64,000 nucleotides of DNA, taken from positions 4,737 to 68,736 of the forward strand of contig JAZDOD010000011.1 in NCBI GenBank assembly GCA_043798995.1, written 5' to 3'. This document shows, piece by piece, positions 4,342 through 48,840 of this stretch (within the stretch, counting starts at the first letter, position 1; each line of letters starts with the position of its first letter). The notes beneath the pieces are model-generated. The model did not search any database. It was given only the letters and a program-made list of their open reading frames with translations, and had not been told where the DNA came from. A program made the translations under genes and the position numbers. This DNA comes from a bacterium. GTDB lineage: Bacteria; Patescibacteriota; Patescibacteriia; JAACEG01; JAGUWE01.

Positions 4342-7300
4342 ATGAAATTTGTTCACCTGCATACCCATTCACATTATTCTTTACTTGATGGCTTAGCCAA
4401 GATTGATGAATTAATCAATAAGGCCAAGGAAGACTGTGCAGAAGCCTTGGCCTTGACTGATCACGGCGTAATGTATGGCGTGATTGAATTTTATCAGAAA
4501 GCTAAAGCCGCCGGTATTAAACCAATCATCGGCTGCGAGTCCTATATTGTGCCGCATTCCCGCCATCAGAAAGGGCCATTAGCCAACGAAGAGAGGCATC
4601 ATTTGATTTTATTGGCTAAAAATCAAGTAGGGTATCATAATCTGATTAGATTAACCACTTACGCTCATCTTGAAGGTTTTTATTACAAACCGCGGATTGA
4701 CTGGGAGCTTTTGGAAAAATATCACCAAGGGCTAATTGGTTTATCGGCTTGTCTTCAGGGTGAAATTCCCACTGCTATTTTAAGCGGTAATCTTAAAAAA
4801 ACAGAAGATGTTTTGGCTAAATATTTAAATCTTTTCGGCAGGGAAGATTTTTATTTAGAACTTCAGCATCACCCGACAATGCCGGAGCAAGCTCGGGTCA
4901 ATAAAGCGCTTTTGGATTTGGCAAAAAAATTCAAAGTCCAGGTAGTGGCAACTAATGACGTTCATTATTTAAACAAAGAAGACGCCGAAGCTCAGGATAT
5001 TTTACTTTGTTTACAGACCAAGAAAAAAAGAGAGGATAAGGATCGGATGAGTTTCTTGGGCGAGGATTTTTCTTTTAAATCACAGGAAGAAATGATTGCC
5101 AGTTTTCATGATTGCCCTGAAGCCATTCAAAATACCGTCAAAATTGCTGAAAGTTGCGATTTAGAAATAGAATTGGGCAAAGTAACTTTGCCGCACTTTG
5201 AGGTGCCAAGCGGTAAAACTGCCGATGAATTTTTACACGAGCTTTGTCTTGAGGGTTTGGCTTTGCGTTATGGCAAACGCTCCGGAGATGCGGAATATCT
5301 CGAGCGCCTTGATTATGAACTGAAAATTATTAAGAAAACCGGTTTTGCCTCATTTTTTTTGATTGTTCAGGATTTTGTCAATTGGGCAAAAAAACAAAAT
5401 ATTGTGGTGGGGCCGGGTCGCGGCAGTGCCGCCGGTAGTTTAGTTTCTTACGTTTTAAATATTACTGACATTGATCCTTTAATTTATGATTTGCTTTTTG
5501 AAAGATTTTTAAATCCAGAAAGAGTTTCCATGCCGGATTTTGATTTAGATTTTGCTGACATTAGGCGCGAGGAAGTTATTCGTTATGTTGAAGAAAAATA
5601 TGGCCGTGATCGGGTGGCGCAAATTATTACCTTTGGCACTATGGCTGCCCGAGCGGCAATCAGAGATGTCGGCCGGGTAATGGCGCTTTCTTACAGTTAT
5701 TGTGATAAAATTGCCAAAATGATTCCTTTTTTTTCCAGTTTATCTCAGGCACTTAACACCAATGTTGAATTAAGAGAATTGTATCTTAAAGATCCAAACG
5801 CCAAAGAATTACTTGAAACAGCGAAAAAATTGGAAGGTGTGGCTCGGCACGCTTCAACTCATGCCTGCGGCGTTTTAATCACGCGCGAGCCGCTTTATAA
5901 TTATGTACCTTTGCAATTTGCTTCAAGCGGCGACAAAACCATAGTTTCTCAATATTCTTTGCATCCGATTGAAGATTTGGGACTTTTAAAAATGGATTTT
6001 TTGGGCCTTAAAAATTTGACTTTAATTGAAAATGTGCACGAAATTGTCCAAAAAACCCGCGGAGAAGATATTAAAATAGAGAAAATTCCTTTGGATGATA
6101 AAAAAACTTATCGCTTGCTTCAGCGCGGCGAAACAACCGGCGTCTTCCAACTGGAATCAAGCGGCATGAGGAGATATCTTAAAATGCTCAAACCAACTGA
6201 ATTTGAAGACATTATCGCTATGGTTGCGCTTTATCGGCCGGGCCCGATGGAATGGATTCCTGATTTTATTGACCGAAAACACGGCCAAAAGAAAATTGTT
6301 TATCTTCATTCAAAACTGGAGCCGATTCTTAAAAAAACTTATGGCGTGGCTATTTATCAGGAGCAGGTGATGAAGATCGCTCGGGAGCTGGCCGGTTTTA
6401 CTTTAGGCGAGGCCGATATTTTAAGAAAAGCCGTTGGCAAAAAAATTCCTCATCTTTTGACCAAGCAAAAGAAAAAATTTATTGAAGGTTGTGTTAAAAA
6501 TAATGTTTCAGCCAAGTTAGCCGAGCAGGTTTTTTCTTTTATTGAGCCATTTGCCGGCTACGGCTTTAATAGGAGTCACGCGGCCTGCTATGCCATGATT
6601 GGTTATCAAACCGCTTATCTTAAAGCCAATTTTCCGGTTGAATTTGTGGCCGCGCTTCTGACTTCCGAAGAAGGCAGCACTGAAAAAATCAATCTTATTG
6701 TCCAGGAATGCCTGGCAATGGGTATTGAAGTTTTGCCTCCGGACATCAATGAGAGTTTTAAGCATTTTACAGTTTTGCCAAAAAGCGAAAAGCCTACCAT
6801 TCGCTTTGGCCTTTTGGCTATTAAAAATGTCGGTGAAAATGTCATCAATGTCATTGTTCATGAGCGAAAACAAAATGGTTCTTACCAAAATTTGGAAGAT
6901 TTTCTTAGCCGGATTAAATGCAAAGACCTAAATAAGAAATCATTGGAAAGTTTAATTAAAAGCGGAGCTTTGGATCGGTTTGGCGAACGGGCGCAAATGT
7001 TGTATAATATAGAAAAAATTTTATCCTTTATCAAAGAAATTCAGAAAAACAGCCAAGACAAACAAGCCAATTTATTTGGCGCTACTTCTTCTGGCCAGTT
7101 TGCCAAACTAAATTTGGAAAAATTTGAAACAGCTTCAGAAAAACAAAAATTGACCTGGGAAAAAGAACTTCTCGGCCTTTATATTTCAGCCCATCCTTTT
7201 AAAAGTTTTGAGCCATATTTAAAGGAAATAATGGTTAATTGTTACGAGATTAATAAATTAGCCCAAAAAGAGAATGATATTGAGTACGTTCCTGATGGCG

Positions 7301-19160: not shown

Positions 19161-19542
19161 TGTCATTCCTGCGGAAGCAGGAATCCAGACGATTAAAGAT
19201 CATAATACAGATCTTGCCAGTTAGGATTTGATTTTTCAATTAATTCTAATTTCCATTTTCTCTTCCATTTTTTTAATCTTTTTTCACCCTCGATAGCACT
19301 TTCTATACTAGCCGTTTCTTCGTAATAAACTAAATTATGGATTTTATACTTTTTCGTAAAACCGGAAATTAAATCGTTTTTATGTTCGTAAATCCTCTTT
19401 TTTAAATTTGATGTCACTCCGATATATAGAGTACCATTTCTTTTACTTGCCAAGATATAAACGTAATAAGATTTCATTGTTTTCTGGATCCCGCATCCCG
19501 CCTGCATTAAAATTACGGCGGGCAGGCAAGTGCGGGATGACA
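19161..19542. mobile_element. ~382-bp GIY-YIG-encoding unit bounded by inverted hairpin ends (TGTCATTCCTGCGGAAGCAGGAATCCAGA ... TCTGGATCCCGCAT...GTGCGGGATGACAT)
   Basis: Both ends occur fused, without the gene, as the 61-bp MITE at 55868-55928. Confidence 0.6.
19193..19477 (-). CDS. GIY-YIG nuclease family small protein
   Basis: MKSYYVYILASKRNGTLYIGVTSNLKKRIYEH...; the first 22 codons of the listed ORF lie in the right hairpin end, so start moved to M23. Confidence 0.8.
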   Translation of the reverse strand: MKSYYVYILASKRNGTLYIGVTSNLKKRIYEHKNDLISGFTKKYKIHNLVYYEETASIESAIEGEKRLKKWKRKWKLELIEKSNPNWQDLYYDL

Positions 19543-19596
19543 TAGGGAGAATTAGTGTGGAATGACAAAATAAATATTGTTAGGATGACAGAAAAT

Positions 19597-21120: not shown

Positions 21121-21154
21121 ACAAAAAATCCGCCTCTTCGGCGGATTTTTTGTT
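21121..21154. terminator. Bidirectional intrinsic terminator downstream of rplA
   Basis: AAAAAATCCGCC-TCTT-CGGCGGATTTTTT. Confidence 0.6.
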
Positions 21155-28840: not shown

Positions 28841-29230
28841 TGTCATTGCGATCCGCCAGCTGGCGGAGAAGCAATCTCTTCCTTAATTTATGAAACACAA
28901 AAAATACTATGTCTATATAATGACTAATAAAACTAACTCCACGCTTTATAGCGGTGTAACAAATAATCTTAAAGAGAGAGTCTATCAACATAAAGGCAAA
29001 TTAATCGAAGGATTTACTAAAAAGTATAACATTAATAAATTAGTTTATTATGAGGAGTTTAACAATGCTTACGATGCAATCGCTCGAGAGAAACAAATTA
29101 AAGCGGGTTCAAGGAAAAAGAAAATTGAACTAATTGAGAAAGAAAATAAAAATTGGAAGAATTTAAGCGAAGATTGGTAAAGTGAGATTGCCGCGTCGTC
29201 CTGCCTGCGGCGGGACTCCTCGCAATGACA
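28841..29230. mobile_element. ~390-bp GIY-YIG-encoding unit with symmetric ends (TGTCATTGCGA-hairpin-GCAATCTC ... GAGATTGC-hairpin-TCGCAATGACA)
   Basis: 11-bp TIR TGTCATTGCGA/TCGCAATGACA plus inner inverted pair GCAATCTC/GAGATTGC; isolated ends at 11909 and 50748. Confidence 0.6.
28890..29180 (+). CDS. GIY-YIG nuclease family small protein
   Basis: YYVYIMTNKTNSTLYSGVTNNLKERVYQHK; paralog of 19193-19477. Confidence 0.8.
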   Translation: MKHKKYYVYIMTNKTNSTLYSGVTNNLKERVYQHKGKLIEGFTKKYNINKLVYYEEFNNAYDAIAREKQIKAGSRKKKIELIEKENKNWKNLSEDW

Positions 29231-29244
29231 AAAACACAAACTCC

Positions 29245-34364: not shown

Positions 34365-34449
34365 ATTTTGGAAGGGTCGCATTGCGCCTCTTCGGCGCAT
34401 TTATGCGCCAAGTTGGCGCATCCGCCGTTGAGGCGGAAGTGGAAAATAT

Positions 34450-34710
34450 ATGTATTATTTTTATGTTTTACAATTTAAGAATAATAAAAAATTATATAAA
34501 GGAATTACAAATAATTTAAGAAAAAGAATAACAGATCATCGTTCTGGTCAGTCAAAATTTACTTCACGAAACGGCGATTTTAATTTAATTTTTTATGAAG
34601 CGTATTTAGATAAAAGAGATGCCATAGAGGCGGAAAGATATTTTAAGAGCGGTCACGGCAGAGAAGTATTGAGGCAAAAATTAAAATATTATTTTGGAAG
34701 GGTCGCATAG
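34450..34710 (+). CDS. GIY-YIG nuclease family small protein; C-terminus overlaps tRNA-Ser
   Basis: MYYFYVLQFKNNKKLYKGITNNLRKRITDH; stop codon TAG at 34708-34710 inside the tRNA. Confidence 0.8.
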   Translation: MYYFYVLQFKNNKKLYKGITNNLRKRITDHRSGQSKFTSRNGDFNLIFYEAYLDKRDAIEAERYFKSGHGREVLRQKLKYYFGRVA

Positions 34711-34780
34711 TGGTCTAGTGCGCCTGCTTGGAGAGCAGGTATGCCGCAAGGCATCGCGAGTTCAAATCTCGCCCCTTCCG
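34696..34780 (+). tRNA. tRNA-Ser (anticodon GGA)
   Basis: Hand-folded: acceptor GGAAGGG/CCCTTCC, 3-bp D stem, anticodon stem CCTGC/GCAGG loop TTGGAGA, long variable arm ATGCC-GCAA-GGCAT, T-loop TTCAAAT, discriminator G. Confidence 0.85.
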
Positions 34781-34848
34781 TTTGAGTTTTTTGCGGCAAA
34801 AATTATCAAAGCACTTGGCGTTTCTATTGAGGAGTTAATAAAATAACT

Positions 34849-48095: not shown

Positions 48096-48122
48096 ATAGA
48101 AATTAGTGATTAGAATTTTTCT

Positions 48123-48191
48123 TGCGGGATCGTTTCTAACGGCCCGCCAAAGGCGGGTAAATAAGACAGCGGCCGGCGCTTGTCCCGCACA
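48123..48191 (+). other. tRNA-Gln-like remnant (acceptor arms retained, interior replaced by hairpins)
   Basis: Begins TGCGGGATCGT and ends GTCCCGCA like tRNA-Gln at 48549; interior CCCGCCAAAGGCGGG. Confidence 0.35.
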
Positions 48192-48196
48192 AAACT

Positions 48197-48230
48197 GGGG
48201 GGTCGTCTAATGGTAGGACACCAGCCTTTT
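48197..48230 (+). other. Diverged duplicate of tRNA-Gln 5-prime half, ending in the anticodon loop
   Basis: GGGGGGTCGTCTAATGGTAGGACACCAGCCTTTT vs TGCGGGATCGTCTAATGGTAGGACCGCGGCCTTTG. Confidence 0.45.
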
Positions 48231-48306
48231 CCGCCGGAGGCGGACTCGCCTTTTCCGCCAAAGGCGGATCTGCCTTGGGCATGAGGCGAGGAAGCCGAAA
48301 ATAAAA

Positions 48307-48645
48307 ATGTATTACACTTATATATTAAAAAGCAAAAAAGACGGAATTCGTTATGTTGGTAGCGGTGAAGATGTATTAGAAAGATTACGTCGGCATAATA
48401 AAGGTGACCATCAATTTACAAAAGGGCACCGACCTTGGGAATTAATTTATCAAGAAAAATATAGCACAAGATCAGAAGCTATGAGGCGTGAAAAATTTTT
48501 AAAATCAGGTCAAGGAAGAAAAATTTTAGATGAGGTTCTCGGCAAGGCTGCGGGATCGTCTAATGGTAGGACCGCGGCCTTTGAAGCCGTTAATCATGGT
48601 TCGAATCCATGTCCCGCAGCCTTGCCGAGAAATAGTAAAGAGTAG
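48307..48645 (+). CDS. GIY-YIG nuclease family small protein; reading frame runs through tRNA-Gln
   Basis: MYYTYILKSKKDGIRYVGSGEDVLERLRRHNKG; last ~30 codons overlap the tRNA, true C-terminus uncertain. Confidence 0.7.
   Translation: MYYTYILKSKKDGIRYVGSGEDVLERLRRHNKGDHQFTKGHRPWELIYQEKYSTRSEAMRREKFLKSGQGRKILDEVLGKAAGSSNGRTAAFEAVNHGSNPCPAALPRNSKE
48549..48619 (+). tRNA. tRNA-Gln (anticodon TTG)
   Basis: Hand-folded: acceptor TGCGGGA/TCCCGCA with U1-A72, D stem GTCT/GGAC, anticodon stem GCGGC/GCCGT loop CTTTGAA, T stem CATGG/CCATG loop TTCGAAT, discriminator G. Confidence 0.85.
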
Positions 48646-48720
48646 GAGAGACGGCCTTTTCCACTGGGGGCGGACTTGCTTGTCCCGCCTTGGCGGGGCG
48701 GCCTCCTTGCCCCGCTATAG

Positions 48721-48760
48721 GCGGGGTGAAGAGCCGTTAATCATGGCCCGCCCCGCACCA
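48721..48760 (+). other. tRNA-Gln 3-prime-half-like fragment ending in CCA
   Basis: TGAAGAGCCGTTAATCATGG matches the tRNA from anticodon loop through T stem, then CCCGCCCCGCACCA. Confidence 0.35.
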
Positions 48761-48840
48761 ATCCTAAGTAAAATTTTCCTAATTTTTCCATTTGTGCTAA
48801 AATTAAGTTAAAAGATATTTAACATTAATTTTTTAATTTT

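Follow-up and report, generated by a model that had tools for sequence, protein, structure and literature searches.

One way to understand the sequence ahead of a tRNA-Ser(GGA) gene in the patescibacterial contig JAZDOD010000011.1 (assembly GCA_043798995.1) is as a very small selfish element. The stretch analysed (64,000 nt, positions 4,737 to 68,736 of the forward strand; hereafter the window) holds a 326-bp unit in which a displaced copy of the tRNA's 5' end, a block of GC hairpins and a gene for an 86-amino-acid (aa) GIY-YIG protein lead into an intact tRNA gene. With a probability of about 0.6, this is a homing-type selfish cassette of Patescibacteria tRNA genes, which keeps the tRNA functional by carrying the 5' segment with it; within this account, the cleavage step is what we infer.

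In this account the unit consists of a conserved GC hairpin pair, a short spacer, and the gene for the Slx1/UPF0213-type nuclease, whose end is joined to a replacement for the first 13 nt of the tRNA. It sits at the boundary between positions 13 and 14, in the D-arm of tRNA-Ser; upstream there remains the old 5' end, dead and divided by the hairpins, and downstream the tRNA is whole. The nuclease would break an unoccupied tRNA-Ser gene near this boundary; the break would be repaired by copying the occupied allele, in the manner of free-standing homing endonuclease genes; of the two homology arms, the left would be the 13-nt fragment and the right the remainder of the tRNA, so that tRNA sequence would often be co-converted. 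The hairpin pair probably shields the displaced copy from targeting, or is the structure that a branch-specific nuclease binds. The regenerated tRNA would still be a target, and arrays could therefore build up.

The 326-bp unit and its protein

The unit is delimited by an exact direct repeat, ATTTTGGAAGGGTCGCAT, with a spacing of 326 bp between its copies; each comprises tRNA positions 1-13 and five nucleotides upstream of them. The preliminary description gave 17 bp (34366-34382 and 34692-34708); the exactness stands, the length does not, as one more base matches to make 18 bp. Shuffled sequences contain the 17-mer 0.31 times on average when up to three mismatches are allowed, and the window holds just these two copies. 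The repeat brackets three GC hairpins and the GIY-YIG open reading frame (ORF), as first reported, and the ORF does end within an intact tRNA: its last four codons (GRVA) and the stop TAG (34708-34710) are tRNA positions 1-15, the TAG itself positions 13-15. The segment 34696-34780 is accepted as a tRNA both by ARAGORN, which calls tRNA-Ser(GGA) at 34695-34781, and by Rfam (57.1 bits against a gathering score of 29). Behind the hairpins comes AGTGG, which matches positions 14-18 of the tRNA; the hairpin block thus divides the left tRNA copy and does not terminate it (Table 1).

The GIY-YIG gene is the sole ORF of the unit; the neighbours are genes for a hypothetical protein, CutA, a PurD-like protein and an IDI/NUDIX protein. 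The junction in the D-arm had been remarked upon as unlike the 3'-end sites that integrases use, and this is borne out. Neither the unit nor the adjoining genes include an integrase or any recombinase gene of the tyrosine or serine type. The unit also lacks a transposase and terminal inverted repeats. No Rfam family of group I or group II introns matches at the gathering threshold or at E<=1, and the tRNA is contiguous; nor did any Rfam family match the tRNA fragment or the hairpins. A scan for promoters and terminators around the element gave nothing useful.

Table 1. Parts of the unit at tRNA-Ser(GGA), in window coordinates (MFE, minimum free energy)
Feature	Position	Strand	Evidence or remark
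Left repeat copy: ATTTT (5 nt) plus displaced 'fossil' tRNA-Ser positions 1-13 (GGAAGGGTCGCAT)	34365-34382	+	exact 18-bp repeat
Hairpin block, three GC hairpins	34383-34437	+	MFE -38.8 kcal/mol, z -3.6
Hairpin 1, TGCGCC-TCTTC-GGCGCA	34383-34399	+	first of the conserved pair
Hairpin 2, TGCGCC-AAGTT-GGCGCA	34404-34420	+	middle, extra copy
Hairpin 3, TCCGCC-GTTGA-GGCGGA	34421-34437	+	second of the conserved pair
AGTGG, displaced tRNA copy resuming (positions 14-18)	34438-34442	+	identical to 34709-34713 of the intact tRNA
A/T-rich spacer ahead of the start codon	34443-34449	+	sequence; length and sequence vary among related loci
86-aa minimal GIY-YIG nuclease gene (putative)	34450-34710	+	Pfam PF01541, E=6.7e-16
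Right repeat copy: ORF end plus working tRNA positions 1-13	34691-34708	+	exact 18-bp repeat
Intact tRNA-Ser(GGA)	34696-34780	+	Rfam RF00005, 57.1 bits; ARAGORN

The protein is a single PF01541 domain (residues 1-71; 58.8 bits against a cut-off of 22.6). Residues Y3/Y5, Y16, G18, R26, H30, E50 and E62 are invariant in 22 aligned members; judged by this alignment, the predicted catalytic residues (Tyr of the GIY and YIG motifs, Arg, His and Glu) are intact. A sequence profile matches the PDB entries 1zg2 (8e-10) and 1ywl (2.5e-8), with no match to I-TevI or UvrC, and a Foldseek search with an AlphaFold2 model (pLDDT confidence score 88) places 1zg2 first and six Slx1 chains next, I-TevI and UvrC coming after. 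On sequence and modelled fold, then, this is a minimal GIY-YIG nuclease of Slx1/UPF0213 type, of putative activity. The ratio of non-synonymous to synonymous divergence (dN/dS) is ~0.1-0.2, at a saturated dS of >=0.85; the gene is under purifying selection. There are 116 homologues, 52-100% identical, and every informative taxon name among them belongs to the Patescibacteria. Most have exactly 86 aa and end in G-x-V/F/I-A, the translated 5' end of tRNA-Ser, and over-long gene calls begin with MEGSHCASSAHP... or MRLFGASAVEAE..., that is, with tRNA fragment and hairpins in translation. A neighbour-joining tree of 82-aa proteins is star-like, and does not separate vertical from horizontal history. 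Looked up by exact sequence, neither the GIY-YIG protein nor the hypothetical protein upstream matched any contig.

Occupied, empty and altered tRNA genes

Relatives of the GIY-YIG protein were retrieved with their surroundings from 80 genome loci (cited by number, as L001). About 65 of the 80 have a tRNA on the same strand within ~300 nt, and in ~24 of the closest loci the ORF overlaps the start of a tRNA-Ser by 11 nt, as in the window. The full layout (the tRNA-Ser's own positions 1-13, hairpins, GIY-YIG gene, intact tRNA-Ser) occurs in ~25 other Patescibacteria genomes, at three tRNA-Ser genes, GGA, TGA and GCT. Among 29 loci with canonical hairpins, 22 repeat positions 1-13 of their own tRNA exactly, 43-73 nt upstream of the ATG; in every case position 13 is the last base of the 13-mer, and the acceptor sequence in it varies from one genome to another. 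The others have one or two mismatches, a truncated fragment, or none. Counted among related loci, the repeat runs to 13-21 bp, its upstream extension being ORF coding sequence. At least seven loci have a fragment that differs from the tRNA, and five ORF-intact copies have no tRNA fragment at all (L022, L023, L026, L028 and L035).

The 13-mer is followed by a conserved pair, nnnGCC-TCnnC-GGCnnn and then nnnGCC-GnnGA-GGCnnn, the second an inverted copy of the first, which accounts for the conservation of the loops. Across 28 loci this two-hairpin structure is 99.7% paired, with double-sided changes at 6 of 12 pairs (16 cells); 0 of 500 shuffles reach the observed values. The hairpins covary, and on these alignments their base pairing is under constraint. 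The bases behind them, AGTGG or AGCGG, are tRNA positions 14-18, and position 16 (T or C) matches the D-loop of the same locus in 27/27. Families at tRNA-Gln and tRNA-Pro genes behave likewise: the displaced copy picks up after the hairpins (positions 1-21, hairpins, 22-27, and on to ~37 in L040). The same hairpin pair is kept in cassettes at different tRNAs (Ser, Gln and Pro), always with target half-sites on both sides. Two other ideas about the hairpins were discarded. A kissing interaction of the two loops (TCnnC with GnnGA) leaves the variable middle bases unpaired; and hairpin 1 (TGCGCC...) is not a remnant of tRNA positions 23-28, as it does not track the tRNA sequence in other loci. 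A hairpin at 21129-21145, TCCGCCTCTTCGGCGGA, matches the motif and has a stem similar to those of the cassette; situated between convergent genes, with an A run and a T run at its sides, it is an intrinsic terminator of the ordinary, bidirectional kind.

Unoccupied sites were sought by scanning metagenome contigs for the uninterrupted D-arm, GGnnnnnTCGCATAGYGGYCTAGTGCRC, which gave an unbiased sample of 120 loci, 106 of them with >=400 nt upstream. A GIY-YIG gene lies upstream in 4 of the 106 and in none of the remaining 102; three more scanned loci (L189, L198 and L205) carry ORF-less scars of fragment plus hairpins. An empty syntenic site is present in L082-84, whose IDI gene is 78% identical to that of the window and whose tRNA-Ser(GGA)-IDI junction is clean; relatives are thus found both empty and occupied, and do not all carry the duplicate without the GIY-YIG gene. 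The closest relative found, L081 (IDI 90% identical), lacks the GIY-YIG gene and has scars only: a displaced 3' remnant of the tRNA, and a displaced 5' fragment to which the left end of another type of cassette is attached. The hypothetical neighbour on the upstream side has no homologue but itself.

L209 holds a tandem array (fragment, hairpins, first GIY-YIG gene, fragment, hairpins, second GIY-YIG gene, tRNA, 3' remnant); evidently a site that has been regenerated can serve as a target once more. L018 has a second cassette, nested within the anticodon loop, and its middle copy of positions 1-13 (GGAGAGG...) is unlike both the outer fragment and the working tRNA (GGAAGGG...). Displaced fragment and working 5' end are also different from each other in L089 and L098; the working acceptor strands of L098 pair with each other, not with the fragment. 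The choice between a target duplication and an element-borne copy had been left undecided; these differences favour a 5' end that is element-borne, or co-converted in repair, over target-site duplication. The three loci, among them L098 with a working tRNA that is coherent as a whole yet foreign to its fragment, are suggestive of co-conversion of flanking target sequence. The broader claim, of site-specific insertion at a tRNA with its 5' end regenerated, is supported by the layout in other genomes, by the empty sites and by the tandem, nested and ORF-less derivatives.

Displaced 3' remnants of tRNA-Ser also lie downstream of the working tRNA, at 2000-2250 in L081 and at 3195-3320 in L209; that of L209 has a further hairpin-containing insert in its T-loop. 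The window and L081 are close relatives whose tRNAs differ in the acceptor stem and agree fully in the anticodon and variable arms, a pattern suggestive of replacement of the tRNA piece by piece.

The window itself has three more GIY-YIG paralogues, found by tblastn. The paralogue at 48307-48540 immediately precedes tRNA-Gln(TTG) at 48549-48621, which apart from tRNA-Ser is the sole tRNA of the window, and its ORF (48307-48645) reads through that tRNA-Gln. Ahead of it a displaced tRNA-Gln copy is laid out as positions 1-35 (48196-48229), a hairpin cluster (48230-48290), and GAAGCCG, positions 36-42; there is an older remnant at 48123-48190, and downstream another (48651-48760) with a hairpin insert between anticodon positions 35 and 36. 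The displaced copies differ from the working tRNA-Gln in their acceptor and anticodon stems. By its layout the region 48120-48765 is a second, paralogous tRNA-linked cassette. An 11-nt inverted repeat, CTCGGCAAGGC and GCCTTGCCGAG (48538-48548 and 48619-48629), surrounds this tRNA-Gln; its right arm starts in the last three bases of the tRNA as called by ARAGORN, and with the acceptor stem the repeat would make a stem of ~18 bp.

The other two paralogues do not adjoin tRNAs: 28893-29142 on the plus strand (region 28842-29232) and 19193-19477 on the minus strand (region 19162-19567). A hairpin module stands on their flanks in inverted copies (GTCATTGC...GCAATCTC upstream and GAGATTGC...GCAATGAC downstream; TGTCATTCC...GGAATGACA). 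The module belongs to an abundant intergenic palindromic repeat family, TGTCAT(T/C)CC...GG(A/G)ATCCAG, with at least 12 sites in the window, often clustered (for example 11909, 12758, 19162, 54668, 55887, 56561, 56581, 59400 and 59792).

Some loci depart from the common layout. In L022, L023 and L026, three of those without a tRNA fragment, the hairpin pair and GIY-YIG gene come directly after the stop of a gene for a glycine-rich protein; in L022 and L023 a tRNA-Ser(GGA) lies 1.3-1.6 kb downstream. The tRNA-Ser next to the cassette in L006 (3247-3336) has the anticodon ACT according to ARAGORN, and a conventional tRNA-Ser(GCT) with another D-arm lies 230 nt upstream of the cassette; the former may be a chimeric or non-functional tRNA made by the element. 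Distant GIY-YIG subfamilies (L041-L078, e.g. L043, L052, L063, L066, L068 and L070) sit just downstream of intact tRNAs for Met, Asp, Ala, Asn, Gln and Ser; their hairpins, TG[ACT]ACC-nnnn-GGT[AGT]CA(T/G)GGC, begin at the tRNA 3' end and are sometimes tandem, and L063 and L068 have an additional copy of the tRNA's last ~15 nt ahead of the hairpins. On the far side of the window's tRNA-Ser, the stretch towards IDI (34793-34846) is the C-terminal tail, ending ...AKIIKALGVSIEELIK and a stop, of an XRE-type helix-turn-helix gene that is truncated in the window and in L081 and intact in the more distant relatives L085-87, so that the tRNA-Ser block appears to have displaced most of that gene.

Competing explanations

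Sporadic presence at a conserved site that also has empty alleles is what is expected of a free-standing homing endonuclease gene, and the four occupied genes among 106, with L082-84 empty, agree with it. Six points weigh against a homing cassette. The occupied allele keeps an intact tRNA, so its immunity is not obvious; cleavage of the tRNA-Ser target by the nuclease is a step that we infer; the 86-aa protein is a catalytic domain with no other Pfam domain, unlike characterised GIY-YIG homing enzymes, in which (as in I-TevI and the Seg proteins) a DNA-binding module gives a long recognition site; viral contigs scanned with the family profile hold no relatives, and so nothing there to explain horizontal spread; the tRNA-derived AGYGG between hairpins and ORF is not predicted by a simple contiguous insert; and the pattern at the tRNA-Ser(TGA) loci suggests long-term constraint or concerted evolution, not a short-lived parasite.

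This last pattern is shared by six orthologous loci in deeply diverged genomes (L001, L013, L014, L020, L027 and L034), which have two to four upstream genes in common, with 37-83% identity in the adjacent host protein, and are all occupied. Not even L013 and L027 can be aligned in the intergenic DNA beside the fragment, while fragment, hairpins, AGTG and ORF are conserved, and the fragment tracks a change in the tRNA from C6:G67 to T6:A67. A fragment conserved in this way is not simply decaying: it would be renewed by re-insertion, homogenised with the working copy, or selected, for example as a homology arm.

A second perspective, which we think unlikely, builds on these loci. It supposes a resident, host-useful gene linked to the tRNA: the nuclease would be co-transcribed with tRNA-Ser, the 13-mer and hairpins would form a functional 5' leader, and the arrangement would be old and vertically inherited, its mobility rare or extinct. 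For example, the ratio of mRNA to tRNA output could be set by a leader that makes the mRNA more stable, or that vies with the tRNA's 5' strand for pairing with the 3' acceptor strand. Besides the full occupancy and the tracking 13-mer amid scrambled flanks, the dN/dS of ~0.1 at saturated dS is in keeping with such a gene; some interplay at the RNA level is unavoidable, as an RNase P cut at tRNA +1 would strip the last four codons and the stop from the ORF; and a fusion of TrmH, a tRNA D-loop methylase, with GIY-YIG had hinted at an RNA role in this protein lineage (PMC1564403). A resident gene does not, however, sit easily with an occupancy of ~4% among tRNA-Ser genes of the same D-arm, with occupation of three isoacceptor genes, with tandem and nested copies and ORF-less scars, with ORF-intact copies that have no tRNA fragment, or with the seven or more loci whose fragment is unlike the tRNA.

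It is also possible, if doubtful, that the hairpin pair is a recombination or transposition site, at which a host recombinase or a single-strand mechanism inserts the cassette, the GIY-YIG gene being cargo or a nickase. The geometry invites comparison: two inverted 11-bp cores, GCCTCnnCGGC and its reverse complement, lie 6 bp apart and resemble dif/Xer sites, or, when folded, integron attC sites or IS200/IS605 ends. The retention of one pair in Ser, Gln and Pro cassettes between target half-sites would follow, as would the covariation, which is seen in structured single-strand sites; and a circle made up of positions 1-13, hairpins, 14-18 and ORF would yield the observed layout if it crossed over within 1-13. 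Set against this, the 326-bp unit has no recombinase in it or beside it, the hairpins are confined to a single end, neither a second site nor a circular junction was observed, and a short-core crossover does not predict that displaced and working copies should sometimes differ.

The hairpins could alternatively be the working part of the nuclease's own mechanism, a proposal that we hold to be improbable. Lying between the half-sites 1-13 and 14-18, they would be the substrate or targeting device of an Slx1-like nuclease with nothing but a catalytic domain; what makes it specific would then be the element-borne tRNA fragments, by homology or in a guide-like way, together with a DNA cruciform or RNA hairpin, rather than a DNA-binding domain. 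If true, DNA would enter tRNA genes by a new mechanism that depends on structure, in which tRNA acceptor stems are continually rewritten and split or chimeric tRNA genes are left across the Patescibacteria.

A cut-and-paste transposon, with the 18-bp repeat as its target-site duplication, is largely refuted. In its favour, left and right copies agree exactly in the window, as they do at most related loci; yet transposase and terminal inverted repeats are absent, the repeat varies from 13 to 21 bp with one end fixed at tRNA position 13 and an upstream extension that is ORF coding sequence, and its copies disagree in L089 and L098, as does the middle copy of L018 with both outer ones. A chance repeat or assembly artefact, for which nothing speaks beyond the AT-rich context of the first five bases, is refuted by the shuffles and by the recurrence of the same architecture in independent assemblies from many studies.

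Known systems and implications

Phages and genomic islands that integrate at tRNA genes do so with a tyrosine integrase, at the 3' part of the tRNA, and are kilobases long. The cassette has in common with them the tRNA target, a displaced tRNA segment that is carried along, and direct repeats at the ends; it differs in using the 5' 13 nt (21-22 or 35 nt in sister families), in the absence of an integrase and in the 326-bp size of the unit. A parallel for the replaced gene end comes from Allomyces, where, according to what Paquin et al. are said to have described in 1994, a mitochondrial GIY-YIG ORF brings a replacement end for atp6 and the displaced end is left as a pseudogene. In Tremella, host gene fragments are exchanged through intron mobility (PMC7315562). 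In both, as in the cassette, an endonuclease gene in an essential gene is made harmless by carrying the displaced part, and a fossil copy stays behind; these are, in contrast, organellar protein-coding genes in which the 3' end is replaced and a hairpin module is absent.

The free-standing GIY-YIG homing genes of T-even phages, such as SegB in the T4 tRNA gene cluster (PMC2330249), resemble the cassette as stand-alone genes beside tRNAs with presence/absence polymorphism, and the cassette, too, is likely to spread in a way that co-transfers sequence of the flanking tRNA region. Seg proteins have DNA-binding domains and are placed in the UvrC/I-TevI lineage (PMC1564403), whereas the cassette protein has nothing beyond its catalytic domain and is of the Slx1/UPF0213 lineage. 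Moreover, Seg genes are intergenic and have no gene-fragment duplicate or hairpin module; the cassette lies inside a cellular tRNA gene and supplies it with a replacement 5' end. By sequence and fold its protein belongs with the bacterial UPF0213 and Slx1-like minimal GIY-YIG proteins (PDB 1zg2 and 1ywl). That lineage has been described as minimal and mostly vertically inherited, the selfish homing and restriction members being derived from the other, UvrC-like one (PMC1564403); here, unlike in that description, members of UPF0213/Slx1 type behave as mobile cassettes.

Insertions in stable-RNA genes of the same phylum are on record: group I introns in patescibacterial tRNA genes, in an account that does not mention GIY-YIG (PMC13011429), and GIY-YIG ORFs in rRNA-gene insertions of the candidate phyla radiation (CPR) that resemble neither intron class (PMC11270868). 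The cassette shares their phylum and the stable-RNA target. It differs from introns in lacking a ribozyme, as judged by the absence of any Rfam match, and in that the tRNA is regenerated at the DNA level rather than interrupted and then spliced. Full-text literature searches found no description of the arrangement of fragment, hairpins, GIY-YIG gene and tRNA.

There are consequences for annotation, as gene callers fuse tRNA fragments and hairpins into ORFs (with N-termini such as MEGSHCASSAHP... and C-termini such as GGVA), and the ORF stop falls within the tRNA. The conserved hairpin pair, for its part, offers a testable substrate for a minimal structure-specific nuclease. If the reading as a homing-type cassette is correct, bacteria would gain a widespread and very small (~0.3 kb) class of selfish elements resident in tRNA genes; the supposedly housekeeping Slx1/UPF0213 branch would include mobile members; and the reduced genomes of Patescibacteria would have a DNA-level route to chimeric, duplicated and fragmented tRNA genes.
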